Below, piece after piece: positions 6,127-23,088 of a stretch of DNA of 64,000 bases. The stretch covers positions 11,109-75,108 of the IMG/VR virus record IMGVR_UViG_3300032315_001657. One strand, written 5' to 3'. Position numbers and translations under genes: made by a program. This stretch comes from a virus. How positions within the stretch are numbered: the first letter of the stretch is position 1; the number at the start of each line of letters is the position of its first letter. Below the pieces are notes generated by a model, which did no database searches, was not told the DNA's origin, and saw only the letters and a list, made by a program, of their open reading frames with translations.

Positions 6127-6405
6127 ATGCAATTTGATAGATTAGTTGAAGAACTACTAACAGAGATGCCTTATATAGAAATTGGAGATCAAATTATTGA
6201 TTTAGAAGTTGAGCTATATAAGGAAAGACCAGAAGAATTTATTGACAAATTAAAAAGTATCTTACAGGGTAATAGGGTAACAGGTAAATACAACTCCTCC
6301 ATACAATTAACAACGCCGGAAGAAAAACAAGAGTTTCTCAAAAAAATAAAATTAAATTACATGTTAAAAGGATTTATACCTGGAGATCTTATCGATAGTT
6401 TATAA
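6127..6405 (+). CDS. Hypothetical late protein
   Basis: ATG at 6127 after TAAATA (6116-6121); N-terminus MQFDRLVEELLTE. Confidence 0.6.
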   Translation: MQFDRLVEELLTEMPYIEIGDQIIDLEVELYKERPEEFIDKLKSILQGNRVTGKYNSSIQLTTPEEKQEFLKKIKLNYMLKGFIPGDLIDSL

Positions 6406-6416
6406 AATAGTGCATT

Positions 6417-6908
6417 ATGGGCCCAACCTCGATTGCACCTGATGAAATTTTAGATATTAAAAAACAATATTACTCTTGGAATCGTTTTCATGAACTTATT
6501 AATAGGGTTAAGAAACAAATTGATATTCCACCTAATTTAATTGTATCTATTGGTAAAGGGGGATCCATTCCCGGTGTTGTTTTAGCTGAAATGTTTGAGT
6601 GTAATAATATAAATTTAGGTTTAAAATCCTATAAGGGACACTCTCGGGGTAACATTCATGAGTATCAATCTATTGGCTGTTTTAATGGGTTTAGAGATGC
6701 TAATATTCTTATTGTTGATGATCTTGCCGATTCAGGTGAAACTTTTCTTTATGCGGTTAAAAAGTTTAAAGGTAATGGTTGTGAGAATATAAGAACAGCC
6801 TCAGTATTTTATAAGCCTTGTTCAAGGTTTAAGCCTGACTATTTTGCAGAAGAAGTGGATAGCAAGATCTGGATCGTGCTGCCTTGGGAGACTATGGAAG
6901 TTCAGTAA
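6417..6908 (+). CDS. Type I purine phosphoribosyltransferase (Gpt-like)
   Basis: SIGKGG, PRPP-binding ILIVDDLADSGET, WIVLPWE. Confidence 0.85.
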   Translation: MGPTSIAPDEILDIKKQYYSWNRFHELINRVKKQIDIPPNLIVSIGKGGSIPGVVLAEMFECNNINLGLKSYKGHSRGNIHEYQSIGCFNGFRDANILIVDDLADSGETFLYAVKKFKGNGCENIRTASVFYKPCSRFKPDYFAEEVDSKIWIVLPWETMEVQ

Positions 6909-7308
6909 TAAACTTCTTATATAAATCCCAATACGATTTAAAAACAGAAGTTAATTTCTCCGGCTTAACCTTTTTATAGTTAATCCATTTATAGTCTATA
7001 TGCTCCCAGGATAGAGTGGGCATAAAACTATCATTAACCACCATAAAAAATGAGTAAACAGGCTGTTTTTCTCCTTCTTTAGTAATCTTTAATTTACCCA
7101 CTAAATTACCCTCAGGCATTAGTCCAATCTCTTCTATACACTCTCTCTGAGCAGTTTCTAGAGGTGAATATTCATCTTCCTCCCTGTGACCTCCGGGAAA
7201 TGTATATTTACCGTTTTCTTTTTGTAGTAGAAGTACCTCTTTTTGTGGGGTAACAAAAACTATACCTGCACCGATGTATTTTATTTTAATAAATTCTGCA
7301 AAGCTCAT
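6892..7308 (-). CDS. NUDIX hydrolase
   Basis: Nudix box PGGHREEDEYSPLETAQRECIEEIG. Confidence 0.9.
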   Translation of the reverse strand: MSFAEFIKIKYIGAGIVFVTPQKEVLLLQKENGKYTFPGGHREEDEYSPLETAQRECIEEIGLMPEGNLVGKLKITKEGEKQPVYSFFMVVNDSFMPTLSWEHIDYKWINYKKVKPEKLTSVFKSYWDLYKKFITELP

Positions 7309-7310
7309 GG

Positions 7311-7338
7311 TTGATGTTTAATATAAATAATTTATAAT
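7311..7338 (+). promoter_or_regulatory. Nested early (sigma70) and late (T4-type) promoters for bS21
   Basis: TTGATG-16 nt-TATAAT with a perfect TATAAATA at 7322-7329 inside the spacer. Confidence 0.55.
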
Positions 7339-7345
7339 ACAACTC

Positions 7346-7570
7346 ATGGAAAATATAGCAGTTTATTTACAAAAAGGGGAATTTTCAGGTAGAGAACATA
7401 TTGATCGAGTACTCAAAAGGCTTAAAGGCAAAATGGAGTCAGAGGGTATTTTAGATACCGTCCGCTCCAAAAAGGCCTTTGAGAATGAAACTCAAAAAAG
7501 ACAACGTAAAGCTAAGAAGCTAGCAAAACAACGTAAGCTTCAAAAGCTTAAGCGGCAGCACCAGTCTTAG
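7346..7570 (+). CDS. rpsU: Ribosomal protein bS21
   Basis: IDRVLKRLKGKMESEGILDTVRSKKAFENETQKRQRK matches the S21 pattern (I/VDxALKRxK...GIL..VR...FE.PT..R.RK). Confidence 0.85.
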   Translation: MENIAVYLQKGEFSGREHIDRVLKRLKGKMESEGILDTVRSKKAFENETQKRQRKAKKLAKQRKLQKLKRQHQS

Positions 7571-7751
7571 CAGCTTTGCGGGAGTTCTTCTCTTCTTGAA
7601 TGGCTTTACGTTCGTTTTTGACATATTTACCAATCTCTTGAAGGGCTTTACGAGCACGAGACCCTGCAGCATTGTTCCCTCCGTAAAACTTTTCAGCTTC
7701 TACGGAAAAAGTTTCAACGATTTGTTTTAGTGTGTCTGTAGTATTAGGCAT
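7548..7751 (-). CDS. Histone H1-like (Hc1 family) small basic protein
   Basis: GNNAAGSRARKALQEI matches the GNKAAGTRARK signature. Confidence 0.8.
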   Translation of the reverse strand: MPNTTDTLKQIVETFSVEAEKFYGGNNAAGSRARKALQEIGKYVKNERKAIQEEKNSRKAAKTGAAA

Positions 7752-7804
7752 AATATCAATAGTTATTTGCATTTGTATGCTTTTTCAACTAATTAATTTT
7801 ACCT

Positions 7805-8560
7805 ATGAATAAAAAAAGTTTAAATTTGGATATGTCAACTAGTGGCTATACGAATTTAGCAGGTATAGCTACTCTTTATAATGAATTTTTTTCTCGGCAT
7901 GATTATAGATGGTGGTATGAGGTACACCCTGGAGATATTGTTGTGGATGTTGGTGGTTGTATTGGTATGTTTACCTGTTTAGCTTTAGATAGCGGTGCAA
8001 GTAAAGTTTTTACAGTAGAACCTAATCCATCCCTCGCAAAAACTATTCTCAAAAATGCATCAATACACATTTTTAATAAAAAAGACTCACCTGTAACTAT
8101 TATTAATAAAGCTATTGGTACTGACAGTACTTATTTTAAACACATATATGGTAATAAATATATGAACTCAAATGATATTGGTGCTGAATTAACTGAAGAA
8201 GAATTTAATGCTTTAGAGCTAATATCCTTTAAAGAATTTATAAAGCAATACGACATTAAGCATATAGATTATCTTAAGATAGATTGTGAAGGTGGAGAGT
8301 TTGATATTTTAACTGCTGAAAACCTTGATTTTATAAAAAATAATGTAAAGCATATAGCTGTAGAGTTTCATATAGGGGCTTTTGAAGATGGCCCAGAAAG
8401 ATATAATAAATTTAAAGATACTTTTTTATCTCAATTTGATAAAAGTAAAATTAAGTTTTTAAACTCTGAAGATTATGAAAAAGCTTTTAATATAGACTGG
8501 ACAAAACGACAAGAGGGATGGAGAACAAGTGTCTTTATGATATACATATGTAATTTTTAA
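7805..8560 (+). CDS. FkbM-family methyltransferase
   Basis: VVDVGGCIGMF, VEPNP, IDYLKIDCEGGE, VEFH. Confidence 0.9.
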   Translation: MNKKSLNLDMSTSGYTNLAGIATLYNEFFSRHDYRWWYEVHPGDIVVDVGGCIGMFTCLALDSGASKVFTVEPNPSLAKTILKNASIHIFNKKDSPVTIINKAIGTDSTYFKHIYGNKYMNSNDIGAELTEEEFNALELISFKEFIKQYDIKHIDYLKIDCEGGEFDILTAENLDFIKNNVKHIAVEFHIGAFEDGPERYNKFKDTFLSQFDKSKIKFLNSEDYEKAFNIDWTKRQEGWRTSVFMIYICNF

Positions 8561-8626
8561 AAAATTACTAAAGAAATTAAACTTTATATTTGCAATACCT
8601 TATTAATACAATAAATTTATAGTGTT

Positions 8627-8740
8627 ATGAAATACATCCTACTCGCAGTTTTGGTAGTCTCTGCTGTTATGACTACTGCTTGTGCCTCTAAAAAAGAATG
8701 CACACCATGTAATAAAACTGTCGTCACCACGACTAAATAA
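8627..8740 (+). CDS. Small putative lipoprotein (37 aa)
   Basis: Manual translation MKYILLAVLVVSAVMTTA-CASKKECTPCNKTVVTTTK shows a signal peptide and a lipobox-like Cys; below the ORF-track cutoff. Confidence 0.6.
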   Translation: MKYILLAVLVVSAVMTTACASKKECTPCNKTVVTTTK

Positions 8741-8821
8741 TAATAATGTTTTATTACATACAAAACGAAAATAATAGAAAACCTCCCTTTACGGGCTGAG
8801 TTCTTGATTCGTTTTGTTTTG

Positions 8822-8854
8822 AGACCCGGCCCTAAAAAGCCGGGTTTTCTTTTT
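8822..8854 (+). terminator. Rho-independent terminator upstream of the tRNA array
   Basis: ACCCGGC-CCTAAAAA-GCCGGGT followed by TTTCTTTTT. Confidence 0.75.
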
Positions 8855-8888
8855 GATCTTTGATAGCTTTAATCTTAAATAATTTTTC

Positions 8889-8970
8889 GGGTAGATCGCA
8901 TAGTGGCAATTGCCGGAGACTGTAAATCTCCTCTCATTAGAGTTCGTAGGTTCGAGTCCTACTCTACCCA
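8889..8970 (+). tRNA. tRNA-Tyr(GTA)
   Basis: GGAGA-CTGTAAA-TCTCC anticodon arm, long variable arm, GGGTAGA/TCTACCC acceptor. Confidence 0.95.
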
Positions 8971-8983
8971 TATTTTAATAATT

Positions 8984-9054
8984 TGGCTCGTAGTGTAATG
9001 GTAACACCAGAGAATTTGGATCTCTTAATCATAGTTCGAGTCTATGCGAGCCAG
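8984..9054 (+). tRNA. tRNA-Gln(TTG)
   Basis: TGGCTCG/CGAGCCA acceptor; AGAGA-ATTTGGA-TCTCT arm. Confidence 0.9.
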
Positions 9055-9061
9055 TTTTTAG

Positions 9062-9090
9062 TTGCACAATTTAAAAGATTCCGACATAAT
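9062..9090 (+). promoter_or_regulatory. Sigma70-type promoter
   Basis: TTGCAC-17 nt-CATAAT, ATG 7 nt downstream. Confidence 0.55.
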
Positions 9091-9097
9091 AACAACA

Positions 9098-9271
9098 ATG
9101 AAGCTTTTAAAGCAGCCCTGGGAAAAATATGGCATAACCGAAATGGCATATTTAATGGCTTACACACAGGGATACCAAGGGGCATTTAGATCTCCTGACA
9201 CCACCTATAAGCATGGTACAGTACTTAGAAAAATTTATAATAAAGGAAGAAGAGAGGCTAAACAATATTAA
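9098..9271 (+). CDS. Hypothetical protein
   Basis: ATG at 9098 right after a promoter (MKLLKQPWEK...). Confidence 0.55.
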   Translation: MKLLKQPWEKYGITEMAYLMAYTQGYQGAFRSPDTTYKHGTVLRKIYNKGRREAKQY

Positions 9272-9438
9272 TGAAATTAGACTTAGACATTTTATATGCT
9301 TTTGTACTCTGCATACTCATAGCTGTTTTTACAATTCAATCGCGAGAAATTAAAATTTTGCAAACTGAAATTAAAGAGCTTAGAATTATTGTTGATCAAA
9401 AATTCTTACCTCCAGTAAATACAGATAAAAATTTGTAA
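9271..9438 (+). CDS. Small single-TM/coiled-coil protein (55 aa)
   Basis: Manual translation MKLDLDILYAFVLCILIAVFTIQSREIKILQTEIKEL...; start overlaps the upstream stop. Confidence 0.5.
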   Translation: MKLDLDILYAFVLCILIAVFTIQSREIKILQTEIKELRIIVDQKFLPPVNTDKNL

Positions 9439-9478
9439 TATGGAAGACTTTGACGGTTTAGGAATTTAATGAATTCTA

Positions 9479-9569
9479 GCTGGGTTAGTGTAATTGGAAG
9501 CACCGACAGTCTTATAAACTGTGTGCCCTAGATGAGGGCCGAGCATGGGTTCAATTCCCATACCCAGCA
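9479..9569 (+). tRNA. tRNA-Ile(TAT) with a long variable arm
   Basis: GCTGGGT/ACCCAGC acceptor; ACAGT-CTTATAA-ACTGT arm; V-arm GCCCT-AGATG-AGGGC; ATGGG-TTCAATT-CCCAT T-arm. Confidence 0.85.
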
Positions 9570-9597
9570 TATTTTTTTTTTGATCTTTTACATTTTA

Positions 9598-9670
9598 GGG
9601 GTGGTAGCTCAATGGTTAGAGCAGTCGGCTCATAATCGATAGGTTGACGGTTCGAATCCGTCCCGCCCCA
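9598..9670 (+). tRNA. tRNA(CAT), most like Ile2 (lysidine type); elongator Met possible
   Basis: GTCGG-CTCATAA-TCGAT arm; paired G1-C72 and no three consecutive G-C pairs, so not an initiator. Confidence 0.85.
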
Positions 9671-9677
9671 CATTTTC

Positions 9678-9749
9678 GGAACGGTAACTCAATGGTAGAG
9701 TAGCGCCCTTTTAAGGCGTAAGTTCTGGGTTCGAGCCCCAGTCGTTCCA
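9678..9749 (+). tRNA. tRNA-Lys(TTT)
   Basis: GCGCC-CTTTTAA-GGCGT arm, canonical cloverleaf. Confidence 0.95.
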
Positions 9750-9768
9750 TATTAAATAGCTCTTTAAT

Positions 9769-9843
9769 ACCTAGGTAGCACAGCGGTAGTGCAGCGCACT
9801 GTTAATGCGCGGGTCGTTGGTTCGAATCCAACCCTAGGTGCCA
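9769..9843 (+). tRNA. tRNA-Asn(GTT)
   Basis: GCGCA-CTGTTAA-TGCGC arm; G73 plus CCA. Confidence 0.95.
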
Positions 9844-9851
9844 TTTTAAAA

Positions 9852-9923
9852 GTCTCGTTCGTTCAAGGGATAGGACCGAAAACTTCTAATTTTCTAATGT
9901 AGGTTCGAGTCCTACACGAGACA
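9852..9923 (+). tRNA. tRNA-Arg(TCT)
   Basis: GAAAA-CTTCTAA-TTTTC arm; GTCTCGT/ACGAGAC acceptor. Confidence 0.92.
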
Positions 9924-9944
9924 TACATTTAAATATACAATAAC

Positions 9945-10016
9945 GTCGCCATCGTCTAACGGTTAGGACACATGGTTTTCATCCATGTAATCGGGGTTCG
10001 ATTCTCCGTGGCGATG
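9945..10016 (+). tRNA. tRNA-Glu(TTC)
   Basis: CATGG-TTTTCAT-CCATG arm; GTCGCCA/TGGCGAT acceptor. Confidence 0.92.
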
Positions 10017-10070
10017 CTTTATATTTTTAGTTGCCGGTCTATTAATCCCCTCTATACTTTTCATAACTCT

Positions 10071-11240
10071 ATGTCTAAAATTCAATTACCTAAAAACATA
10101 GGTCAAGGCAAACCAGCTAAAATTAAGGAAAATGTTCAGTATTTTGATACATCTCATCATGGTTCATTTTTTCCTTTTGGTGTATATTTCACTACTACTC
10201 ATGGAGTAATGCCTTCTACTATTCATATTAACAAAACGTATACAGAAGATTTAATTTTCTTTTTAAGAGAAAAAGGCGAAATCTTTCAAGATCTTGTCTC
10301 TATTCCTGCAACTTCTCCTCGATCCATGACTCTTAGTATGTATCAAGATGACTTTGAAACAGAAGAGCCAGAATATAAAGGTACTTTCCTTTATAAGGAT
10401 TGTGTAATTAATTTTCAAAGAACACCTTCTCGTAAACATAAAAAGTCTGCTGAAACACCACCGCTTTTTACTATCTCAATTTATTATAAACCTGGTACTA
10501 CACCTCCAGTAAAGGATTTTGATAAATTTTTATTTGAAGAAAAACTTAATAGTGTAATTCATACTATTTTTCGAGATGAGCACGGAGGAATTGTTTTTGA
10601 GCCTTTTGAAACTGTTGTACCTGAAGGTTATTCAGTAGAAAAATATTACACTAAAGACTTTCAACCGATTCATAAACATATTGTTGATACTCTTCAAAAA
10701 AATGAATCTGGGTTATACCTCTTTCATGGGGAGCCTGGAACTGGTAAAACAACTTATATTAAATACTTAGCAAGTGTTCTTAAAAGAGATGTAATTTATG
10801 TTCCGGTTGCTTTTATCGACTCTCTAGTTGATCCGTCGTTCTTACCAGCATTGCTTAAAAAGCGTCATTCGGTTCTTGTTATTGAGGATGCTGAAAAAGC
10901 CTTATTAGCTCGAGAGCCAGGCGATTCGTCCTCCCTTGTTTCAGCTATCCTCAATATAACTGATGGTATTATGGGTAATGTGTTTAGTATATCGGTTATA
11001 GCTACTTACAATTCCCCTAGAGCAGGGATTGATAAAGCTTTGCTTCGTAAGGGAAGATTAAAGGGAGAGCATAAATTTGATAAACTTCCCGTAGAACAAG
11101 TTCAAAAAATTCTGGATGATAATAAGATTAATTTTACCGCTAAAGAGCCTATGTCCTTGGCAGAAATATTTAACACCCAAGAGCCCGACTCTTTGAATAC
11201 TAAATCTTTAGTCGAAGAAAAAAGAATGGGCTTTTTTTAA
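10071..11240 (+). CDS. AAA+ ATPase
   Basis: Walker A GEPGTGKT, Walker B LVIEDAE, DKALLRKGRL. Start moved to 10071 because 9972 lies inside tRNA-Glu; promoter TTGCCG-16-TATACT at 10031-10058. Confidence 0.9.
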   Translation: MSKIQLPKNIGQGKPAKIKENVQYFDTSHHGSFFPFGVYFTTTHGVMPSTIHINKTYTEDLIFFLREKGEIFQDLVSIPATSPRSMTLSMYQDDFETEEPEYKGTFLYKDCVINFQRTPSRKHKKSAETPPLFTISIYYKPGTTPPVKDFDKFLFEEKLNSVIHTIFRDEHGGIVFEPFETVVPEGYSVEKYYTKDFQPIHKHIVDTLQKNESGLYLFHGEPGTGKTTYIKYLASVLKRDVIYVPVAFIDSLVDPSFLPALLKKRHSVLVIEDAEKALLAREPGDSSSLVSAILNITDGIMGNVFSISVIATYNSPRAGIDKALLRKGRLKGEHKFDKLPVEQVQKILDDNKINFTAKEPMSLAEIFNTQEPDSLNTKSLVEEKRMGFF

Positions 11241-13399: not shown

Positions 13400-13750
13400 T
13401 AGGCGGCTAAATAAAAGGTATACTGCTAAAGTTACAAGAAACACCACTGGGATATACAAAGCTGTTAAGAATAGACAAGCCCCTAAAATACTTAGCCATA
13501 GAGCTAAACAGAGCGGGCAAGTGATTAACTCTATTAAAAACATACAAGCATTACAATTAAAAAGTAAGTTACGCTTAACATAGAGATATTGAGGAAAAGT
13601 TAAACCGTCTGTATTAGTGTCATAACCAGCTAGTAGTTTTTTTAAACCTAATACCTTACAATACGCTGGAAAAGCTCCAGAATTAAACCAAACTATCATA
13701 ATAGTTACTAATAAAGCTATTACTTTAAGAAAAACTATTAAATCTACCAT
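13394..13750 (-). CDS. Membrane protein, DUF1360-like
   Basis: Hydrophobic segments and ELITCPLCLALW. Confidence 0.55.
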   Translation of the reverse strand: MVDLIVFLKVIALLVTIMIVWFNSGAFPAYCKVLGLKKLLAGYDTNTDGLTFPQYLYVKRNLLFNCNACMFLIELITCPLCLALWLSILGACLFLTALYIPVVFLVTLAVYLLFSRLL

Positions 13751-13770
13751 AAATATACTTATAAAGATAT

Positions 13771-14214
13771 ATGAAATTTGACACCCTTTACAGAAACGTA
13801 TTTATCACTGAACAAGATGATTTATCTGTTCCTACTGATGAGCCCATGGATGGAGATATGACTGGAGAAGAGCCAGCACCAGAGCCTGCTGCTGACGGAG
13901 TGCCAATGCCTGATAATTTTGATGTAGACCCTGCGCCTGTAGCTTCACCAGCTGGCGATGCCGGAACTGTTAAGAATCATGTTATGAAGCTCGATCAATT
14001 TGCTGATGAATTGAACGGTATTGATACAGGTTCCCTTCAACAAATGGTAACAGACCTTGACAAACAAGGTTCATTATTTCAAGGAATTTCTCGAGAAACA
14101 TCTTCAAAGATTATTAAACTCGCAGAACAAGCTAGAGAGTTATCAGAAATCTTTAAAGGTTTTATTATTAATTCAGCTAAACGTCAAAGAGATATTGCTG
14201 CCGGCCAAGGTTAA
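13771..14214 (+). CDS. Acidic hypothetical protein (possible head/core protein)
   Basis: MKFDTLYRNVFITE N-terminus, D/E/P-rich linker. Confidence 0.6.
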   Translation: MKFDTLYRNVFITEQDDLSVPTDEPMDGDMTGEEPAPEPAADGVPMPDNFDVDPAPVASPAGDAGTVKNHVMKLDQFADELNGIDTGSLQQMVTDLDKQGSLFQGISRETSSKIIKLAEQARELSEIFKGFIINSAKRQRDIAAGQG

Positions 14215-14228
14215 TATATAATATAGAG

Positions 14229-15233
14229 GTGGAAGGACTACCTCAAGATTATGTTATACAGGCTCTTTACTCTCACTGTAAAAGACCTGTATACAAAAAG
14301 TATCAAAGAGTTTACAACGCAGAGTGCTGTGTTTGCGGGGAAGGTCATTCTGCTGGTCGTAAGCGTCGTTTATTTTATTTTCCAGACGATCGGTATTTTT
14401 ATTGTTTTAATTGTAGTAGGTCTTGGTCTGAGCTTAATTGGATTCATGAGATTTCTAAAAAACCTGTTCATGAAATTTTAAAAGAAACTAAAATGTTTCA
14501 TAGCAGTAAAGAGATTCAGACTAAAATTGCTAAACAAAACGAAGTCGTAAAAGTAGTTGATGTACCCGCGCTTCCTGATGACGCAATTGATATATTTGAT
14601 AGCAATCAGGTAGCCTTTCATAAAGAAGAAAAACTCGTTAAGAGTTCTATTGAATATGCCCAAAAAAGAAGACTCTTCACTGCTGTAAATAGACCGAAAT
14701 CTCTTTATGTATCTTTAAGGGATAAAGTGCATAAAAATCGACTTATTATACCCTTTTATGGGGAGTTAGGTAAAGTGGAGTCCTACCAGTCTCGGAGTTT
14801 AGATGGGGATGTATATCCGAAATATCTAACAAAGTACGGAGAGAAGAGTCTTTACGGTGAAAACAATATAGATAATGATATTCCTTATATCTTTATCTTT
14901 GAGGGTCCAATTGATGCTATGTTTGTTAAGAACGCTGTAGCTGTTGGCGGTGCTTCAATGACTGATAAACAAGAAGCCTTTATTAAGAAATGCGTCGATA
15001 AAGAAATTATCTACGTTTACGATAATGATAAGAACAATAAAGAGATGTCTAAGAAGATTAAGAATCTTATTAAACAAAATAAAAAACTTTTTGTATGGCC
15101 TAAAGAGTTTAAGAAGTTTAAAGATGTGAACGAGATTTGTTGTAACCTTTGCTTAGACGAATTACCTTACAAATTTATTGTACAGAACTCCTATTCGGGA
15201 GTAGAAGCCTTAATGAAACAAAAGTCTACTTAA
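14229..15233 (+). CDS. DNA primase (T4 gp61-like)
   Basis: Zn finger CCVCG...YCFNC, RLIIPF, KYLT, TOPRIM FEGPIDAMF and YDND. Confidence 0.92.
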   Translation: MEGLPQDYVIQALYSHCKRPVYKKYQRVYNAECCVCGEGHSAGRKRRLFYFPDDRYFYCFNCSRSWSELNWIHEISKKPVHEILKETKMFHSSKEIQTKIAKQNEVVKVVDVPALPDDAIDIFDSNQVAFHKEEKLVKSSIEYAQKRRLFTAVNRPKSLYVSLRDKVHKNRLIIPFYGELGKVESYQSRSLDGDVYPKYLTKYGEKSLYGENNIDNDIPYIFIFEGPIDAMFVKNAVAVGGASMTDKQEAFIKKCVDKEIIYVYDNDKNNKEMSKKIKNLIKQNKKLFVWPKEFKKFKDVNEICCNLCLDELPYKFIVQNSYSGVEALMKQKST

Positions 15234-15465
15234 GATTGCTTACACAGAAGTTAACAGCTTTTAAAAACTTATCTTTATAATTACGGATAGGTTTAACTTC
15301 TATATCTGTCTCTGCTTCTTCAATCATTTGAAGTCTTGAAAACTCCTCTTTAAGAGACTTTAAAAATTTTTCAGAGAACTGAATTTGTTTCGGGTAACGA
15401 ACCCTTGTAACAAACTTCATAGTTCTCGGAAAAAAACTTTCGCAAAGCTGATCAAACTTATTCAT
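15226..15465 (-). CDS. Hypothetical protein
   Basis: 79 aa ORF, tightly packed. Confidence 0.55.
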   Translation of the reverse strand: MNKFDQLCESFFPRTMKFVTRVRYPKQIQFSEKFLKSLKEEFSRLQMIEEAETDIEVKPIRNYKDKFLKAVNFCVSNLK

Positions 15466-15466: not shown

Positions 15467-15997
15467 TTAACCGTAAAGTTTAGCGCCGCCGAATGCTGCT
15501 AATGCACCTAAAGCTTGAGTTGCATAATCTAAACGACTTTTACCTGGTTCTTTTCCGAGAGCATTAGCTACTAGCCCGTTTGTTACTTCCCATTGTTTTT
15601 TATTTGTATATTTAACAATAACATCTCTTTCTTGAGCGCCGTTTTTCTCCACACTTTTATTATTAAGAAAATCCCGTAAGTTTTTCGCTGGTTTCGGTGA
15701 AGCACTTTCCCATAAGTTTTTTAAAACATCTAAAATTAAAATATTTTTTCCTACTGCACGGGCATCTTGACCTGCAATATAACCTTTAGTAACAATAGGG
15801 AATATTCTATTAATATCAGATTCTGTAACTTCCCCTAAACCGAGCTCTTTATGTTTTGCTAAAATATCTTTTAACCAATCTTGAGAATTCTGTTGTAATG
15901 CTGGTGACGGTAGAGGTGGTGCACCTGCAGGTGTAGCGACCGGTGTTGGTTTAGGCTGCTCTAAAACTAAATGTACTGTTTTTTCAAAATTAAACAT
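15467..15997 (-). CDS. Hypothetical late protein
   Basis: TAAATA upstream (16012-16017, minus strand); Pro-rich linker. Confidence 0.6.
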   Translation of the reverse strand: MFNFEKTVHLVLEQPKPTPVATPAGAPPLPSPALQQNSQDWLKDILAKHKELGLGEVTESDINRIFPIVTKGYIAGQDARAVGKNILILDVLKNLWESASPKPAKNLRDFLNNKSVEKNGAQERDVIVKYTNKKQWEVTNGLVANALGKEPGKSRLDYATQALGALAAFGGAKLYG

Positions 15998-16024
15998 AGT
16001 GATAGTATTATTATTTAATACAAA

Positions 16025-16657
16025 TCACATATTAGCTAGCAGAGAACCATCTTCTTCATGAAAGAACTTACCGGAAGGTTTAATATACATAGGTATCTGT
16101 TCAATACGTAGATCTGGAGGACCTTCAAGTGTAATAACAGCAGGACAATCTTCTCTTGGAAAGAAAATACCTTGATTCTTTTCATACGTACCGACAACAG
16201 CTCTAAAAAGATTGTCAATTTCTTGTCGATAAATAGGATCTAAAGCTCGGCCTTTTTTAGGTACTATTGTTATTTCCTCTCTTAACGGTATATAAAATAT
16301 AATATCAAACATTTTTATGGCTTGAAAAGCAATATGCTTAGTATCCATAATAAACTCATCAGATACTTTGCCCTTTTCATTAAGCCAAAGGGAATAAACA
16401 ATGTTATCTATAACACAGCGATCAAATACTAAAAAGTCATCTCCTTTTGCAGTAGCATTTTGAGTATCATCTATAATTGCATTTAAAATAGCTTTTTGAG
16501 AATCAGCTGTACCCTCTTCGTTATTAGTTACCTTACCAGTCTTAATAAGTTTACGATAAGTCGACTTAACCTCTTTGTACATAGGCCATCTTTTAATAAA
16601 TTCTTTAATTAGTGTACTCTTTCCGTTACACTGTGTACCCATAAATGCAATTTTCAT
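16025..16657 (-). CDS. P-loop nucleotide kinase (AAA_28 / dNMP-kinase-like)
   Basis: GTQCNGKST and FDRCVID. Confidence 0.75.
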   Translation of the reverse strand: MKIAFMGTQCNGKSTLIKEFIKRWPMYKEVKSTYRKLIKTGKVTNNEEGTADSQKAILNAIIDDTQNATAKGDDFLVFDRCVIDNIVYSLWLNEKGKVSDEFIMDTKHIAFQAIKMFDIIFYIPLREEITIVPKKGRALDPIYRQEIDNLFRAVVGTYEKNQGIFFPREDCPAVITLEGPPDLRIEQIPMYIKPSGKFFHEEDGSLLANM

Positions 16658-16659
16658 AA

Positions 16660-17418
16660 TTATACCTTAAGGGCTTTATCCCAGATTACCAACTGTAATC
16701 TTGGAGAAAAGTTTACATGCATAGCTTTAGCATATTCTGCTACAGCAGTACTTTTTTCAACGTGCTCTTCTCGAGAACCACAGCAGGGCATAAACCAAAT
16801 ACGGAATAAAGGTACGTTAATACCTAAATCATCATAAACATACTTACGCCAAATTTCTTCAATATCTTTATCAGAATTAATAACAAATTTAAACCCTGAA
16901 CCATTTGTAACATGCCATTTCAACACTTCAGGTTTATAAGTTTTCTCCTCCGGATCTCCGTTTGAAATAAGCTTAGGAGAGGTAGTAAAGGTTGCTTTAA
17001 ACTCTTGCCGCCAACGAGGAGAGGGGGTTAAAGTAGCATTAGTTTCAAAGTCGATACGAGGTATAAAATGATACCTGTCTCTAAAAGCTTCAATAAACTT
17101 TAGCAATTGCTTTTCCTGAATAAAGGGCTCTCCACCTGTAAGTTTAAGAATAGCATTATGGCGAAGATGTTCAATATAGTTATTATTCTCCATTAACTCA
17201 AAGACCTCAGTAAAGGTCTTTTTATTCTTTACCGACCAAGATACAAATGAGTCACAACCATTAGGTGAATCCTCTGATGCAAAGCCAATACAAGTTAAAT
17301 TACACATAGACATCCGCATAAAAACAGATGGCTGACCAATATATTCCCCTTCACCTTCAATGGTATAAAATACCAAATCGTCAGATAGAAATAATGTTTC
17401 TTTATCGTTATCAATCAT
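16660..17418 (-). CDS. queE: 7-carboxy-7-deazaguanine synthase (radical SAM)
   Basis: FYTIEGEG, PSVFMR..CNLTC...CDS, LTGGEP, ETN, SPK, FSPRLQ; near queD. Confidence 0.9.
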   Translation of the reverse strand: MIDNDKETLFLSDDLVFYTIEGEGEYIGQPSVFMRMSMCNLTCIGFASEDSPNGCDSFVSWSVKNKKTFTEVFELMENNNYIEHLRHNAILKLTGGEPFIQEKQLLKFIEAFRDRYHFIPRIDFETNATLTPSPRWRQEFKATFTTSPKLISNGDPEEKTYKPEVLKWHVTNGSGFKFVINSDKDIEEIWRKYVYDDLGINVPLFRIWFMPCCGSREEHVEKSTAVAEYAKAMHVNFSPRLQLVIWDKALKV

Positions 17419-17421
17419 AAA

Positions 17422-17628
17422 TTAACCTCCAATAATAAATTTAAAAAGTAAAGAACAGATTACAATAGCAATCCATCCAATAGGATTAAACAATAATAGA
17501 TAAAGTAAGGCAAAAATCAAGACAGATACTAAAGATAAAAATTCCCAAAAACCTATTTTACGATCTTTAAGCCATACTTGTTCAAATTTAGCTGTAATTA
17601 CTTCAAGGTCTTTTTTCATAGATTGCAC
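17422..17628 (-). CDS. Small membrane protein
   Basis: Two hydrophobic segments. Confidence 0.5.
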   Translation of the reverse strand: MQSMKKDLEVITAKFEQVWLKDRKIGFWEFLSLVSVLIFALLYLLLFNPIGWIAIVICSLLFKFIIGG

Positions 17629-18049
17629 TATTTAGCTCATGTTCCCACACTTCAACTCTATTAAGCCAGCAACGACCTACAGACATATCTCTTATCATAG
17701 GATCAACAGTCTTAAAACACCATTCAGCCGTCTTTTCAATACCTACACCATCCATAACACGAAGCTGGCAACCTCCATTATCCGCTAATTGAATAAAACT
17801 AGGTAGCAACGGATCATCTTGAGCAATACAAAGAGTGTGATCAAATTGATCCTGTAATAACCTTTTAACGTCTTTTAAGCCTCCAAAATTTATAACCCAA
17901 TTCTTATCATCTAATCCCTGACATCCAAACCAAAACTTAGCTTTAAGCTGATATCCATGTACATATTTACAATGAGTACCTTCAGCTCTCCACTGCCTGA
18001 AGGCACAAGAGCCAAGTTCTATAATCTTAGTTGATTCAAATCTAACCAT
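17603..18049 (-). CDS. queD: 6-carboxytetrahydropterin synthase
   Basis: HCKYVHGY, NFGGLK, FDHT, VEVWEH. Confidence 0.9.
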   Translation of the reverse strand: MVRFESTKIIELGSCAFRQWRAEGTHCKYVHGYQLKAKFWFGCQGLDDKNWVINFGGLKDVKRLLQDQFDHTLCIAQDDPLLPSFIQLADNGGCQLRVMDGVGIEKTAEWCFKTVDPMIRDMSVGRCWLNRVEVWEHELNSAIYEKRP

Positions 18050-18338: not shown

Positions 18339-18365
18339 ATAGAGGTATTATACTACCTCTGGAAC

Positions 18366-18980
18366 TTATTTCAACTTTTTATTAAACAAGTTATAGATAC
18401 CGTTATCAAATTTTCCGTAGAGGTCTACAATTATTTGTTTTCTTTCTGCCTCTGAAACATGTTTGTACATATCTCTAATTTGGGTAGCACTTGTTATATT
18501 TTTACCTAAAACTTTAAAAGGGAAAACAGGGGCAACAGTAATGTATCCCTTTTCCCCTAAAGGTAACATTTCGTTAGCATCTTGAAGTTTTTGAAAATAG
18601 CTTGGTGAACCGTCTTTTTTTGGTTTGTATGAAAATCTATCTATATCTTTTTCTGATACAGCATATATAAGTCTGTCTTTTAAGTCGTTATATTTTAATG
18701 TAATTTCTTTTGCTACATAAGGAGACACAACCTGTACAATTTTATCAGCTGGTACACCGGCCTTGACTAAAGCTAACTTGCGCTCTTGAAAGCTAAAAGG
18801 AGATTTTTCATCAACTTTATTACTTGTAGCTACATACACATCTGCCCCTGGGTACTGCTCTACAAGAGAATTATAGACCTGAGCATGCCCTCTGTGGGCT
18901 GGTTGAAAGCGGCCAGGGTAAATTACAACTAGCTTGCCATTTCTAGTTTGTTCTGTAAAAAACTGATTAAATGCTATCAT
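18366..18980 (-). CDS. Cytidylyltransferase-like (HxGH) nucleotidyltransferase
   Basis: YPGRFQPAHRGH, SPFSFQER, SATQIR. Confidence 0.85.
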   Translation of the reverse strand: MIAFNQFFTEQTRNGKLVVIYPGRFQPAHRGHAQVYNSLVEQYPGADVYVATSNKVDEKSPFSFQERKLALVKAGVPADKIVQVVSPYVAKEITLKYNDLKDRLIYAVSEKDIDRFSYKPKKDGSPSYFQKLQDANEMLPLGEKGYITVAPVFPFKVLGKNITSATQIRDMYKHVSEAERKQIIVDLYGKFDNGIYNLFNKKLK

Positions 18981-20230
18981 TTAAATTTTTCCTCCCTTGA
19001 GATAGCAAAATTAGCCCGAGAAAACTCCAATCGATCTACAAGCTTTACCATATTACCAGATCTATCTACAGCTACAAAGCCCTCTCCGGGAGTAACCTTT
19101 AATGTACCATCAGGCTGAGTTAAAAATTGTTTTGTCTTGATAGCAGTACTATATTTGTTAAAGAAAATCTTTTTTATGTCTGCTATTTTTTTGGTAAGAT
19201 TAAAAATATTAACAATAGACATTTTATTTGTATTAAAAAACTTTATAGCTTTATTTTTACCTTCAATTTTTTTTTGCTTACCTGCTTCAGATTTTAATTT
19301 TTCAATTTCTTTATCTACCCGGCCATTATACCACTCTATAAACCCGTTAAACGTTTCTTCTGGATTTTCAACAAATTTACCTTGACGTATAAGGGTATTA
19401 ATATAGGTATTTGCTAAAGTATAAAAATTATTAGGTAAACCGACCCAATCAGTTATACCCGCTATCTTCTGTATTGAATTCAGACCTTCAGATACTGCTG
19501 TTTTTTCATCATCAGTTAATGTAACAGTGCCAGACATGTCTTTAAACTTTGCATCGTCAAACCATACATCAGGGGATTGACTAAACTCAGAAACATTAAC
19601 GTCAGCAGATTTAGAAAGCTGTTGTAAGTTAGGTCCTGTGTAGCGAGTATGAAACACAACACCAATTTGGGCTGTTTGTATTTTTTTACCTAACTCAGAA
19701 TCTACCTCTACAGCGTATGTAATTGTATTAGGTTTGAAGGTTATTAATTTTTCTCCTTGAAACTCTATTTGCTGCAATGTTGCCTTATCAAACATGAAAT
19801 CACCTTGATAAACATTGCTTTTAATAACTTTTGGTAAATAAAGTAGTGCTAACCTCATCTTTTCAACTAAGCCTGGTGCTTGGCTGTAGTTTTGCTGAAT
19901 GTCTTGATTCGTGTAACATATCTTTGGTGTTTTGGCCGCAGCACTCTTTGTTGCAACAAAGAACTTGTTATTTTCAGGGTTATATCCACATATTATAGCA
20001 GGGGCACCGTCATATTTGACTGTTGTAAAAACACCAGAATCCGCATTACCGTTAAATGTCTCGGTTAAAGCCTTAATAAACTCTACAGCAATATCTAGAC
20101 CTGCTTTCTGTTGAGTTAAAATGTACTCTTCAAGATGGGTAAGATGCTTAATAATACCTTCTTGTTGCTCAATGACAAGATATTTACTAATACTATCTTT
20201 ATAAAAGCTATTGAAAGCTTGTTCAATCAT
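18977..20230 (-). CDS. Conserved T4-like phage protein with an ATP-dependent RNA-ligase-like fold (DUF6267-like)
   Basis: HLTHLEE, TVKYDGAP (KxDG), YQGDFMF, GEGFVA, VKLVDRLEFS. Confidence 0.65.
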   Translation of the reverse strand: MIEQAFNSFYKDSISKYLVIEQQEGIIKHLTHLEEYILTQQKAGLDIAVEFIKALTETFNGNADSGVFTTVKYDGAPAIICGYNPENNKFFVATKSAAAKTPKICYTNQDIQQNYSQAPGLVEKMRLALLYLPKVIKSNVYQGDFMFDKATLQQIEFQGEKLITFKPNTITYAVEVDSELGKKIQTAQIGVVFHTRYTGPNLQQLSKSADVNVSEFSQSPDVWFDDAKFKDMSGTVTLTDDEKTAVSEGLNSIQKIAGITDWVGLPNNFYTLANTYINTLIRQGKFVENPEETFNGFIEWYNGRVDKEIEKLKSEAGKQKKIEGKNKAIKFFNTNKMSIVNIFNLTKKIADIKKIFFNKYSTAIKTKQFLTQPDGTLKVTPGEGFVAVDRSGNMVKLVDRLEFSRANFAISREEKFK

Positions 20231-20239
20231 AACGCTCTA

Positions 20240-20608
20240 TTATTTAAGCGTTAAGAGATAGCGTAGTCTATTAATAACAGCTAGAATTTCGTCTCTAATA
20301 TTGAGACAATCAGTATCCTTTACAGGGTCGTGCATTTCATTGAATGGACCAGATAGGTAATCGTTTAACTGAATTAAAATATCCTCAAGATCTATTTCAT
20401 CTTGATTAACTAAACCTAAATCAATAGGGGTTTCAAAGGTTAATCTTCCGTATTTGCCTTGATGAACTTCAACTAAACTATCAATTAATCCGTCAAGGCC
20501 TTCATACGCATTACCTAAAGCTTTATGAGCAGCATAAGAAAGAGTCTGCCAATGCAGTATTCTCAACTGATTCTGTATTTTAATTAAATTGACAATTACT
20601 TTGTCCAT
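20240..20608 (-). CDS. Ferritin/Dps-like protein (DUF5856-like)
   Basis: LHWQTLSYAAHKAL...DSLVE..QGKYGR, NIRDEI. Confidence 0.75.
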   Translation of the reverse strand: MDKVIVNLIKIQNQLRILHWQTLSYAAHKALGNAYEGLDGLIDSLVEVHQGKYGRLTFETPIDLGLVNQDEIDLEDILIQLNDYLSGPFNEMHDPVKDTDCLNIRDEILAVINRLRYLLTLK

Positions 20609-20856
20609 TAGACAGCTGGCTGTTGATTTGGAGCAGGTTGTTGCCCGGGTTTAGCAGCTTGTAATGCCTGCATTTTTTGTAAAGCTATTTGAACCTGTTG
20701 TTCTGTTTTAGCAGCAATTAGCTCTTGTACTATTTTTGGATCCAATGGAAGCTGTTGAGCTGCAGCAGCGCTAGGCGCTGGTTTTGGTTGTGGCTGTCCA
20801 GGTGTAACGGGCAGCATTTCTTCTATTCTTTTATAAACGGCATCAAATTTACTCAT
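20608..20856 (-). CDS. Hypothetical P/Q/A-rich late protein
   Basis: TAAATA upstream (20863-20868, minus strand). Confidence 0.6.
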   Translation of the reverse strand: MSKFDAVYKRIEEMLPVTPGQPQPKPAPSAAAAQQLPLDPKIVQELIAAKTEQQVQIALQKMQALQAAKPGQQPAPNQQPAV

Positions 20857-20928
20857 ATGTATTATTTAATCGGGAACAATATATTTCTAGAATCTATTTG
20901 GCGAAGTCCCAATCTTCCATACATGCAC

Positions 20929-21417
20929 TTAAACATTATTTTCAGTTAAATCCACTGATCCTAAAGAAAAAGTTTTAGATTTTTTATTCTTCTTTTGAAA
21001 GCTGTAAAGGGCATTCTTATTCAGAAACTTTTGTAACTTAGAGCTCACCAGACGGTTTACATTGAGAGTTCGGGTTAATGCCATTTCTGTGTCGGGGGAG
21101 TCAAAGGAACTAACTTTAACCCAGGGTACAGGTAATACCTTCAAGATAGTTTCAAAGTGCTTGTCCGTAAAGCCTACACCTTTAGGCAAAGGATGTATGA
21201 CAAAAGCTTTTGGGTATTTTGAGCTGCATTTTTGATAACCGTAACAAAACTTTTCTAAGCAATAATGATAAAAGAATTTTTGTATATCTTTGTTTTTAAA
21301 ACTATAAGGTATTTTATATTTCTTACAAAATGCATAAGACTCTTTAAGAGCTTCTATAAAATAAGGATAATAATCAATCCCACATACTCTTGATTTAGGA
21401 TATTCTATAAAATGCAT
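20929..21417 (-). CDS. Hypothetical protein
   Basis: 162 aa ORF. Confidence 0.55.
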   Translation of the reverse strand: MHFIEYPKSRVCGIDYYPYFIEALKESYAFCKKYKIPYSFKNKDIQKFFYHYCLEKFCYGYQKCSSKYPKAFVIHPLPKGVGFTDKHFETILKVLPVPWVKVSSFDSPDTEMALTRTLNVNRLVSSKLQKFLNKNALYSFQKKNKKSKTFSLGSVDLTENNV

Positions 21418-21419
21418 TA

Positions 21420-22028
21420 TTATAATAATGCTTGAACCTGCTCGATACTCAAGCCTTCTTTTAAAGCCTCTTCTGCTGTTTTGTAAAGTTCAGCAATAAT
21501 ATTATTAATTTTTTCTTCGTAACGTAAGACTGTTTTATGATTTTCTTTATTGTAGTTCAGTTTGGAGGCAGATTCAAGAACAGCAGTTTGATTAATGAGG
21601 TCTAGCTTAGAACCTAAATACTTTTTAACTTTGAGAATAGTTTTTGTTTCTGGAGAATAAGCAGCTAGCTCTTGTTCAGTTACTGGCTCTTTAATCTTAT
21701 CACCGTTACTGTTTATTATGCCTAGTTTGTAAGCTTCAAAATCTTTAAAGTTTTTGTTAAGGGAAGAGAGAAGAAATTTGTTTTTCATAGATTCATTAAA
21801 CATTTTATTATAATCAATACCATGAAGATGGATATCTGAAAATGGGTTTAACTTACAACCCTTACCATAAGAGGTAGAACCGCAATAAGAACACCTTTTA
21901 GGATCTTGAGGATGAAAGTGAACCCCCTTAGGCGCAAATCTACATCCCTTGCCGTAAGAGGTTGAATTGCAGTACAGACACCTTGAGACAGGCTTGAACA
22001 CAGATACTTTTTCACTAACTGGAGTCAT
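21420..22028 (-). CDS. Protein with two tandem Cys/His Zn-binding-like repeats
   Basis: CxYCxSTSYGKGCxxxP..xHxH twice; C-terminal part contains AYKLGII. Confidence 0.65.
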   Translation of the reverse strand: MTPVSEKVSVFKPVSRCLYCNSTSYGKGCRFAPKGVHFHPQDPKRCSYCGSTSYGKGCKLNPFSDIHLHGIDYNKMFNESMKNKFLLSSLNKNFKDFEAYKLGIINSNGDKIKEPVTEQELAAYSPETKTILKVKKYLGSKLDLINQTAVLESASKLNYNKENHKTVLRYEEKINNIIAELYKTAEEALKEGLSIEQVQALL

Positions 22029-22034
22029 TGTGTA

Positions 22035-22448
22035 TTATTTAAGGAGGCTCTTAGGGGGAGTCCCTATGCGTACGTTGATTATTCCGTTGTAATAGTCATC
22101 TCTTCGGAGAACGTCTCGTGCTATTTGTTCTTTAATTTCTTCATATCCGAGCTCCCATTTTGATCCGCATATTTTAAGAATACGAAATTCAAAATTATCT
22201 TTACCGTGCTTTTGAATATCTTCGTTTAAATCGTTAGAAGATGAAGTATAAGTCTTCCAATCTGATTCTTTATGATCAATTCTATTACGAGTCTTACCTT
22301 TAAGAGGTTTGCGTTTAATCTTACGTATACACTGCTTTTTACCAATATATTTTTTGCCGTTAACTTTGTTGGTTATTTCATAAATAAAACCAAACATGTT
22401 TTCAAAAATATAAACATCTTCATTTAGTAACCAATGCCCGGTATCCAT
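22035..22448 (-). CDS. GIY-YIG nuclease domain protein
   Basis: FGFIYEITN...KKYIGKK, ESDWKTY, E...YYN. Confidence 0.8.
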   Translation of the reverse strand: MDTGHWLLNEDVYIFENMFGFIYEITNKVNGKKYIGKKQCIRKIKRKPLKGKTRNRIDHKESDWKTYTSSSNDLNEDIQKHGKDNFEFRILKICGSKWELGYEEIKEQIARDVLRRDDYYNGIINVRIGTPPKSLLK

Positions 22449-22450
22449 TA

Positions 22451-22678
22451 TTAACTTTTACGTTTATTTTTACGTTTCTTTCTGCGCTTAATTAAGCCCC
22501 CACGTGTAACAATACCACCGTATAAGCTCTTAGGCACTCGGGCATCCCCAGGTGCATAATTATCTCCGGAGAATTGAGTAGCCGTCGCCTGCACACCTGG
22601 ACCGAAAGCTGAACCTGCACCACCAGCCATATTCTCTTCTTTTAATACATTTAGGATTATATTTTTTAAATTTATCAT
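22451..22678 (-). CDS. Small protein with a basic C-terminus
   Basis: 75 aa; DNYAPGDAR; poly-K/R tail. Confidence 0.6.
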   Translation of the reverse strand: MINLKNIILNVLKEENMAGGAGSAFGPGVQATATQFSGDNYAPGDARVPKSLYGGIVTRGGLIKRRKKRKNKRKS

Positions 22679-22821
22679 TTCACCTGCCCCCTTCTACATC
22701 TCACCATATAACCAGATGCATATGCAGATGGAAATACTTTATATTTTCTTTTAGCCTTGTAGTAACACCTATCTTTTTTTTCTAAGATTTGTTGTTTAAA
22801 AAATTCTTTAAATGTTTGCAT
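22675..22821 (-). CDS. Small conserved phage protein (48 aa)
   Basis: Manual translation MQTFKEFFKQQILEKKDRCYYKAKRKYKVFPSAYASGYMVRCRRGQVK; TAAATA upstream; stop overlaps the next ATG. Confidence 0.7.
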   Translation of the reverse strand: MQTFKEFFKQQILEKKDRCYYKAKRKYKVFPSAYASGYMVRCRRGQVK

Positions 22822-22830
22822 TTGGAGTAT

Positions 22831-23088
22831 TTATTTCTTTTTAGACCATTTAATTCTTTTTGGTCCTTTTTTCTTTACTTTTGATCCAGTACATTGAGAT
22901 AAAGTCGGTCGACAAGCCGGGTAGCCCTTAGAGGGGCCCTTAGTACCTTTTTCTCTACCACAAGGAACAAGTTTACCCGGCTTTGATTTTTTACAGTTTA
23001 TCCAGCCTTTGCCCTTATTTCTCTTGAACCATTTATGAAGAGACTCTTCGTTTAACAGCTCTGTTACTGTATTAATAAAGTCTAACAT
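22831..23088 (-). CDS. Small basic Cys-containing phage protein (DUF5872-like)
   Basis: SLHKWFK...W.NC...PCGR...YPACRP. Confidence 0.6.
   Translation of the reverse strand: MLDFINTVTELLNEESLHKWFKRNKGKGWINCKKSKPGKLVPCGREKGTKGPSKGYPACRPTLSQCTGSKVKKKGPKRIKWSKKK

Follow-up and report, generated by a model that had tools for sequence, protein, structure and literature searches.

Capsid-targeting-like N-terminal leaders on unrelated late genes of an uncultured, distant T4 relative

The stretch of DNA considered here (the window, 64,000 nucleotides) comprises bases 11109-75108 of a single viral contig of 75,108 bases from IMG/VR (IMGVR_UViG_3300032315_001657); contig bases 1-11108 lie outside it. 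Between window positions 6127 and 23088, called the finding region below, ten open reading frames (ORFs) begin with a short peptide, or leader, ending in a hydrophobic residue, any residue and glutamate. These leaders resemble the capsid-targeting sequences of phage T4, and a preliminary description of the region had presented their genes as a cohort of late genes for candidate packaged and injected proteins. T4-type replication and tail genes are present in the window (G+C ~34%) and the phage is an uncultured, distant relative of T4. Comparison of the finding region with 50,697 phage records by megablast gave no match, and the tail sheath shows at most 39% identity to that of any cultured phage, the top matches being vibriophages and cyanophages. 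The contig terminates in tail and baseplate genes and carries no head module on its 75 kb; CheckV estimates for related contigs imply a genome size of roughly 200 kb. Relatives were gathered with one of the cohort proteins, the DUF6267 protein, as query, which yielded 28 related IMG/VR loci at 39-92% identity.

The leader motif in the contig

All ten N-termini translate exactly as first described, at the same starts and on the same strands. The leaders are 9-21 residues long; the residue before the putative cut (P1) is Glu in all of them, and P3 is L or I in seven, V in two and F in one. The genes had been called unrelated, and this holds, as all-against-all blastp of the mature parts returns one weak pair among 21 and the proteins belong to different families; paralogy was consequently rejected as the origin of the shared start. 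A Sec or Tat signal peptide was rejected too, the leaders having Asp/Glu and polar residues every 2-3 positions and ending in Glu. None of the ten contains a hydrophobic run of more than 4 residues, whereas a signal peptide needs a basic n-region, an unbroken hydrophobic core of ~10-15 residues and an A-x-A site.

The motif was set as a strict regular expression before testing, and internal pseudo-N-termini of the same proteins, 0.6% of which match, were used as the null. It is found in 5/34 ORFs of the finding region (p = 2e-6) and in 4/26 ORFs of contig bases 1-11108 (p = 1.7e-5), a hold-out not seen when the motif was first described. In the core replication and tail genes, at window positions 23100-64000, it matches 1/39 ORFs, and this sole match (36818) is a false positive inside the fold of a thiamine pyrophosphate (TPP) enzyme. 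The motif is thus enriched relative to the core genes, and shuffled N-termini give a mean of 0.7 matches against 10 observed. When each ATG of the window was scanned, no additional cohort members were revealed. A home-made Gibbs/expectation-maximisation search of all N-termini reached no useful convergence, and a Glu-anchored position-specific scoring matrix in a reduced alphabet, which placed 5/26 hold-out ORFs above the 95th percentile, had little power and was replaced by the fixed expression.

Some gene starts mimic the motif. That of the QueD gene (17603-18049), MVRFESTKIIE, is no leader, because it is part of the QueD fold and resembles the motif by chance. A gp32-like protein (50634) and the TPP enzyme mentioned above (36818) are look-alikes as well, and none of the three had been listed at first.

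Outside the window, five more leaders of the same kind are present (MKFNKIADSILKE, MNFDQLVNTIFE, MNFDEIVLE, MNKFNEVAQTVLKE and MISFTDLYNLVIGE). A second leader class, M-N-K-D-x-x-L-L-A-E-A-Y, occurs on five ORFs at contig positions 734-6439, upstream of window base 1 (MKKKDQELIAEAY, MNKDQRLLAEQY, MNKDQKILAEKY, MNKDAELLAEAY and MSMLRRDVRLLIEAY). In this class conservation extends beyond the putative L-A-E cut into A-Y-x-x-V-L, and relatives carry a leader of the class, MVFKDLEMLQEAY, beside their head module. Counting both classes, ~20 of roughly 105 ORFs of the contig are tagged. The single motif of the preliminary description lumps leader forms of 9-10, 13-14 and 21 residues and misses the second class lying just outside the window.

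The leader-bearing genes and their late control

The first gene of the cohort (6127..6405, + strand) encodes 92 aa with the 13-residue leader MQFDRLVEELLTE, and the T4-type late box TAAATA is found at 6116-6121, 5 nt before the ATG; its cargo has no Pfam or PHROG match. The product of 13771..14214 (+; 147 aa) is acidic, with a net charge of -14 after the 14-residue leader MKFDTLYRNVFITE, and its box lies at 13750-13755. Seven distinct leaders among its orthologues keep F3, D4, L6, V10, F11, [IL]12, T13 and E14, and the late box is present in 10/10 members of the family. On the minus strand, 15467..15997 (176 aa; TAAATA at 16012-16017) opens with the leader MFNFEKTVHLVLE and continues with a Pro/Ala-rich linker; its orthologues range over 174-456 aa, the leader being retained and the cargo differing in length. 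Directly downstream, 15226..15465 (-) encodes a basic protein of 79 aa with the 9-residue leader MNKFDQLCE and without its own box, being predicted from this arrangement to be co-transcribed with 15467..15997. Its orthologues start with M-[SNL]-K-F-[DNE]-Q-[LI]-[CV]-E, followed by SFFP.

Two members of the cohort are larger and belong to recognised families. The first (18977..20230, -) is a DUF6267 protein of 417 aa with a leader of ~21 residues, MIEQAFNSFYKDSISKYLVIE, ahead of the family domain, to which the Pfam match runs from residue 28. In its AlphaFold2 model, of overall predicted local distance difference test score (pLDDT) 72, residues 1-31 have a pLDDT of ~30 and are disordered. In 27 orthologues the domain starts at G-[IV]-x-x-H-L-T-H-L-E-E, and what precedes it differs in length and sequence; most of them present an M-x-x-x-x-F-x-x-F start and a hydrophobic-x-E end, and the most distant orthologue has the plain 10-mer MNSFKTFLTE as leader. 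K72, D74 and G75 (K-x-D-G) as well as E383 and G384 are invariant, and the protein is possibly, to judge from these motifs, a covalent nucleotidyltransferase or ligase-like enzyme. The model is weak around both invariant motifs; comparison with ligases by Foldseek, VIA-align, PDB profile search and hhalign to T4 RnlB gave no credible match, and nothing usable on its function came from phmmer against PDB, from Pfam with E as high as 10 or from the ESM Atlas. The second (18366..18980, -), which begins before the DUF6267 gene has ended, is a cytidylyltransferase-like, NMNAT-like enzyme of 204 aa (PF01467) with the 10-residue leader MIAFNQFFTE. Residue 8 of archaeal NMNAT aligns to its residue 21, which leaves ~13 extra residues at the start and identifies the leader as an add-on.

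The remaining members are small proteins encoded on the minus strand, and several proteins of the cohort are very basic (+22, +11, +10). The ORF at 20608..20856 (82 aa, Pro/Gln/Ala-rich, leader MSKFDAVYKRIEE) has TAAATA at 20863-20868, 6 nt before the ATG, and 11/12 distinct leaders of its orthologues fit M-S-K-F-D-x-[VIL]-[YL]-x-x-[IL]-x-E. The very basic product of 22831..23088 (85 aa, leader MLDFINTVTELLNE, net +22 after it, TAAATA at 23094-23099, 5 nt before the ATG) is weakly similar to a small basic protein in the head module of the related locus L035 (29% over 80 aa, E = 0.01). The ORF at 22675..22821 encodes 48 aa with the leader MQTFKEFFKQQILE and a net charge of +11, its box being at 22828-22833. 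Its 34-aa basic cargo (S-A-Y-A-S-G...V-R-C-R) matches internal stretches of the long PHROG profiles phrog_727 and phrog_3477, so this module also seems to occur inside large multi-module phage proteins. The body of the 75-aa product of 22451..22678 (leader MINLKNIILNVLKE) is a copy of the major capsid protein's N-terminal arm, and the protein is considered below with the head genes. A further candidate, the weakest, is 21420..22028 (-), a Cys-rich basic protein of 202 aa with the possible 6-residue leader MTPVSE and TAAATA at 22036-22041. Its orthologues start with MELIDE, MELINE or MSFLTE, like T4 gp67 (MEGLIE), and the late box is found in 19/19 members of this family.

Other genes are interspersed with the cohort. 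A SegE-type GIY-YIG homing endonuclease gene without leader or late box (22035-22448, -) is located between cohort genes and may aid the movement of neighbouring cassettes. The minus-strand block at 16025-18049 encodes a kinase of the AAA_28 type (NadR-like), a QueE-like 7-deazaguanine enzyme, which is the sole radical-SAM gene in the vicinity, and a PTPS enzyme resembling QueD; none of them has a leader.

The presence of TAAATA just upstream of many of these genes had also been reported, and the box indeed lies 5-15 nt before the ATG in 7/10 cohort genes; the three box-less genes (18980, 15465 and 22678) begin no more than a few bases from the stop codon of a box-bearing gene. In the whole contig TAAATA is found at -30 to -1 of 26/112 ORFs, 13-fold more than the 1.9 expected from its density, and it also precedes gp17, gp18 and gp19. 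When 65 gene families drawn from all loci are compared, leader and late box are associated with an odds ratio of 7.4 (p = 0.001); the rule used miscalls QueD and scores downstream operon members as box-less, and the association holds regardless. A gp55-type late sigma factor is encoded at 25041..25610 (+; phrog_234 'late sigma transcription factor', E = 2e-24). Boxes and sigma factor together point to late expression of the cohort alongside the head genes.

The box is mostly situated 5-7 nt before the ATG (for example at 6116-6121, 20863-20868, 23094-23099, 54159-54164 and 61102-61107) and no Shine-Dalgarno sequence is visible. If transcription starts at a T4-like distance from it, a large number of late mRNAs would be leaderless or almost leaderless. 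Besides, a hairpin at 20231..20252 (-; AACGC / TTAAATAATAG / AGCGTT; -10.5 kcal/mol, z = -3.1) encloses the late box of the DUF6267 gene and ends at its start codon, and its stem is altered on both sides in two relatives (AACC/GGTT in L017, AACT/AGTT in L019). In T4 genes e and soc a similar hairpin hides the start in read-through early transcripts, whereas late transcripts, which begin inside the hairpin, leave it accessible.

T4 leaders, head machinery and competing explanations

The resemblance to the T4 capsid targeting sequence is closer than could be known from the window itself. In the T4 record NC_000866, from which the control sequences were taken, ipII and ipIII start with MKTYQEFIAE and ipI with MKTFKEFTSTTTPVSTITE (MKTFKEF...ITE), gp24, gp22 and gp67 start with MAKINELLRE, MLKEQLIAE and MEGLIE, respectively, and gp23 is cut after F-L-T-E. 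The window leader MQTFKEFFKQQILE (MQTFKEF...ILE) is identical to ipI in residues 1-7 save position 2, while MIAFNQFFTE and the leaders of its orthologues, such as MKTFKQFFTE and MRTFRQFFKE, follow the ipIII pattern. The T4 protease gp21 cuts after L/I-x-E, the internal protein propeptides are of 10-19 residues, and in the IPIII leader residues 4 and 7 serve targeting and residues 8 and 10 processing (PMC9026906). The NMNAT-like family presents 16 distinct leaders, in which F4, F7, [FL]8 and E10 alone are invariant and positions 2, 3, 5, 6 and 9 vary, so the match to ipI, ipII and ipIII falls at functionally mapped positions. In the 13-14-mers the pattern is shifted, with an aromatic residue at 3 or 4 and hydrophobic residues at P3, P4, P7 and P8, and they therefore follow the T4 position rule (4/7/8/10) by analogy only.

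The leaders are conserved as peptides and not as codons or nucleotides. The P1 Glu is encoded by GAG in 9 and GAA in 11 of them, there are 12 codons for P3, and the nucleotide identity of one leader to another is 0.39, compared with 0.29 for the background of unrelated gene starts. They are also modular, and the cargoes unrelated. The same cargo can carry different leaders, as seen in DUF6267 with a 21-mer or a 10-mer and in the 48-aa basic cargo of 22675..22821, which has a 14-mer in the window and the 10-mers MQSFKQFLAE and MQTFRQFFTE in relatives. Conversely, the leader of window gene 6127, MQFDRLVEELLTE, is almost the same as MNFQMLVEELLSE, which heads another small basic protein in the interval between portal and protease of L035. 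In the enzymes the leaders are outside the folds, as indicated by the Pfam limits and the NMNAT alignment. At contig positions 2211-2609 and 2987-3364 there are two weakly homologous paralogues (27% over 109 aa) with the leaders MNKDQKILAE and MNFDEIVLE; the leader classes differ and the pair would represent a leader swap within one genome.

The evidence on the protease and the capsid sites comes from relatives, because the contig itself has no head module. A Peptidase_S77 (gp21-type) protease is encoded in 4/5 of the larger related contigs, including one whose DUF6267 protein is 82% identical to that of the window. The capsid protein of the relatives has C-L-N-E or C-L-R-E aligned to the gp23 cut site F-L-T-E, and their scaffold contains ~20 hydrophobic-x-E sites and starts with MIKNILNE (MDFKSILKE in the closest relative). 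Between portal and protease, at the place of gp67 and gp68 in T4, a small basic protein bearing a leader is encoded. In this context the product of 22451..22678 is 47% identical to the L035 capsid protein over 51 aa (E = 2e-8), and its leader Glu-14 aligns with the predicted C-L-N-E cut site of that protein, itself aligned with F-L-T-E of gp23. It is a free-standing copy of the capsid N-arm, maturation site included, fused to a basic tail with a K/R run, and it could be a decoy, a protease regulator or a capsid-lining peptide.

A further line of evidence is provided by cultured phages: hundreds of cyanomyophage records, as well as the Pelagibacter phage HTVC008M, conserve a gene pair in which DUF6267 precedes a cytidylyltransferase. 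In cyanophage S-SM1 the enzyme SSM1_190 (T4-GC190, PF01467) starts with MKKFSAFLNE and SSM1_192 (GC1455) with MLSFKELQE, and both genes adjoin the DUF6267 homologue, in synteny with the pair of the window. According to Table S8 of Sullivan et al. 2010 (PMC3037559), purified S-SM1 virions contain GC190 (25 counts), GC1455 (7 counts), GC1453 and GC1454; detection was by mass spectrometry, and the cytidylyltransferase was called unexpected. The passage on this enzyme does not tie it to a leader or to internal proteins, and the expression 'internal protein' is absent from the text, 'leader' and 'propeptide' not having been searched (PMC3037559). The S-SM1 homologue of DUF6267 (GC71) has no such leader and is absent from the same virion table (PMC3037559). 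Only two strict T4-like leaders are found in the S-SM1 genome and both belong to virion proteins (2/2). The cluster is also found in HTVC008M (103767-109011) and Syn9 (148771-153199), where neighbouring genes have leader-like starts, namely MLSFTGYSNLSE, MYNDLLVE (DUF6267), MIPFILKE (a zeta-toxin-like P-loop kinase) and MKKFSAFLSE (Syn9 gp184).

From all this it seems probable that the leaders are T4-type capsid-targeting and processing propeptides borne by an unusually large and varied set of cargo proteins. The cohort genes would be transcribed late from their TAAATA boxes by the gp55-type sigma factor, and each product would begin with an amphipathic peptide of 9-21 residues, aromatic at position 3 or 4, with hydrophobic residues about one helical turn apart and an (L/I/V/F)-x-E end. 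This peptide would bind the scaffolding core of the assembling prohead, so that the protein is built into the head, where a gp21-type serine protease would cut after the Glu and free the mature protein inside the capsid. The mature protein would then stay with the DNA in the head until its ejection into the host. The small basic proteins would probably behave like the T4 internal proteins, and the virion would carry two ready-made enzymes, the NMNAT-like one and the DUF6267 protein. The earlier proposal of an expanded set of head-packaged cargo that includes enzymes survives in part: comparison supports well that the products are late, prohead-targeted and protease-trimmed, because of the match to T4 leaders, the gp21-type protease, capsid L-x-E site and scaffold start of relatives, the late boxes with gp55, and the S-SM1 virion enzyme, but some members may be core or scaffold parts instead of lasting cargo.

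Several points weigh against this interpretation. For this phage and its close relatives the case is one of sequence comparison. The protease and capsid sites are those of relatives at most 82% identical on the DUF6267 protein, the contig being without a head module, and the 13-14-residue leaders are spaced unlike the T4 10-mer, their equivalence being one of pattern. With a loose expression run on the whole S-SM1 genome, 3/9 matches are virion proteins against a background of 17%, which is not significant, and one of these three is the baseplate protein gp53. Besides, ~20 packaged proteins on 75 kb greatly exceed the number in T4, and some may serve in assembly only.

The main rival explanation is unlikely. 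The leaders would mark entry into the prohead, but most of the proteins would be core or scaffold accessories, like T4 gp67, gp68 and gp22, which are degraded and expelled before DNA entry and never delivered. The relatives lend it some weight, as their scaffold proteins open with the same kind of peptide and a leader-bearing small protein lies inside their head module, but most members are placed in variable regions far from the head genes and differ between close relatives, which is the pattern of T-even internal proteins and not of core parts. The products themselves speak on both sides: that of 13771 is strongly acidic, as are gp67 and gp68, and the capsid N-arm copied by the product of 22451-22678 suggests an assembly role, whereas several members are small and very basic like the T4 internal proteins and two are enzymes without a plausible role in assembly. 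Finally, the S-SM1 homologue is listed in finished virions (PMC3037559), which does not agree with expulsion.

The two other explanations fit the data poorly. It is improbable that the shared N-terminal helix is a tag for a partner other than the capsid (for instance a chaperone of the phage, a modifying enzyme or a partner in assembly), with a convergent likeness to T4; short amphipathic helices are common interaction motifs and the link to the capsid on this contig is not direct, but convergence would have to account for the near-identity to ipI over seven residues, for fixed residues exactly at the positions mapped in T4, for a hydrophobic-x-E end (the gp21 site) in every leader, for the same peptide type heading the scaffold and aligning with the capsid cut site, and for the virion detection in S-SM1 (PMC3037559). 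Least credible is a nucleotide-level side effect, by which the first codons would be selected for initiation on leaderless A/U-rich late mRNA or would be recombination joints for gene shuffling, since the short distance from box to ATG, the late mRNAs that would be nearly leaderless, the almost constant TTT for the leader F and the promoter cassettes described as shuffling joints of T4-type phages in passages of PMC2839356 and PMC4122927 are outweighed by gp17, gp18 and gp19, which share box and spacing without the peptide, by conserved residues written in many synonymous codons in leaders 39% alike in bases, by the dominance of TTT genome-wide (928 vs 169) and by a position-specific conservation that reaches residues 10-21 and includes the invariant Glu.

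If the leaders are capsid-targeting propeptides, a bolder proposal may be put forward tentatively, although it is doubtful as a whole. The capsid would be the delivery vehicle of a large and fast-changing toolkit, in which ~20 tagged proteins, the NMNAT-like and DUF6267 enzymes included, enter with the DNA and act before phage gene expression, for instance against NAD+-depleting or RNA-damaging defences. The leader classes (10-mer, 14-mer and K-D-x-x-L-L-A-E-A-Y) would set copy number or place in the head.

Comparison with known systems

Proteins injected by a phage are the first of its tools to act in the infected cell, and restriction enzymes are blocked by each of the three internal proteins of T4 (PMC12373910). 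With a leader readable from sequence it would become possible to catalogue such proteins in uncultured phages. In the present case ~20 candidates, mostly orphans, are indicated, together with two enzymes that have homologues among the core genes of ocean cyanophages and of a pelagiphage. It would also account for the cytidylyltransferase found in cyanophage virions in 2010 (Table S8 of PMC3037559). Conservation of the T4 leader code across very distant members of the superfamily would in turn bear on the loading of foreign proteins into other phage heads. In the accessible portions of the literature since 2019 that uses the term 'capsid targeting sequence', no treatment of marine or uncultured T4-like phages was found.

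Other systems share part of these features. In the giant phages phiKZ, 201phi2-1 and SPN3US, dozens of head-internal proteins, enzymes among them, are cut after Glu by a diverged gp21 homologue; their sites are S/A/G-x-E-like and often far from the N-terminus, and no short shared N-terminal targeting leader is described (PMC9026906). The Dar anti-restriction proteins of phage P1, which belongs to a different phage family, are head-packaged and injected for counter-defence, and a capsid targeting sequence is discussed for them in a passage of PMC9024508. S-SM1 is closer, with the same DUF6267-then-PF01467 neighbourhood around GC190, GC1453, GC1454 and GC1455, a T4-like 10-mer on the enzyme and the enzyme in the virion table (PMC3037559); however, the S-SM1 enzyme has 387 aa and is only distantly similar, and that genome has two strict leaders in all.

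The cut motif is also that of the T4 prohead core and shell propeptides (gp22, gp67, gp68, gp24 and gp23, cut by gp21). The scaffold of the relatives opens with a cohort-type leader, and the second leader class, K-D-Q-E-L-I-A-E-A-Y, which lies outside the window, is similar to the start of gp22, L-K-E-Q-L-I-A-E-A-Q (MLKEQLIAEAQ). Unlike the genes for these propeptides, those of the cohort lie outside the head module and are variable between close relatives.

The nearest known system is that of the internal proteins of T4 and the T-even phages (IPI, IPII, IPIII and Alt), whose capsid targeting sequence was described by Mullaney and Black 1996 and Repoila et al. 1994, as cited in PMC9026906, PMC3012670 and PMC12373910. 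In both cases a leader of 10-19 residues ending in L/I-x-E is carried by unrelated, often small and basic late proteins, the key positions are 4, 7, 8 and 10, the genes are in variable regions and some leaders are nearly identical. One enzyme is already known among the T4 cargoes (Alt), to which the cohort would add an NMNAT-like nucleotidyltransferase and the DUF6267 protein. On the other hand, the tail sheath of this phage is less than 40% identical to that of any cultured T4-like phage, there are ~20 tagged ORFs per 75 kb instead of a handful, most cohort leaders have 13-14 residues with the aromatic residue at 3 or 4, and the cohort is known here from sequence alone. The kind of system is thus already known from the T4 internal proteins, and what is new is a much expanded member of it.

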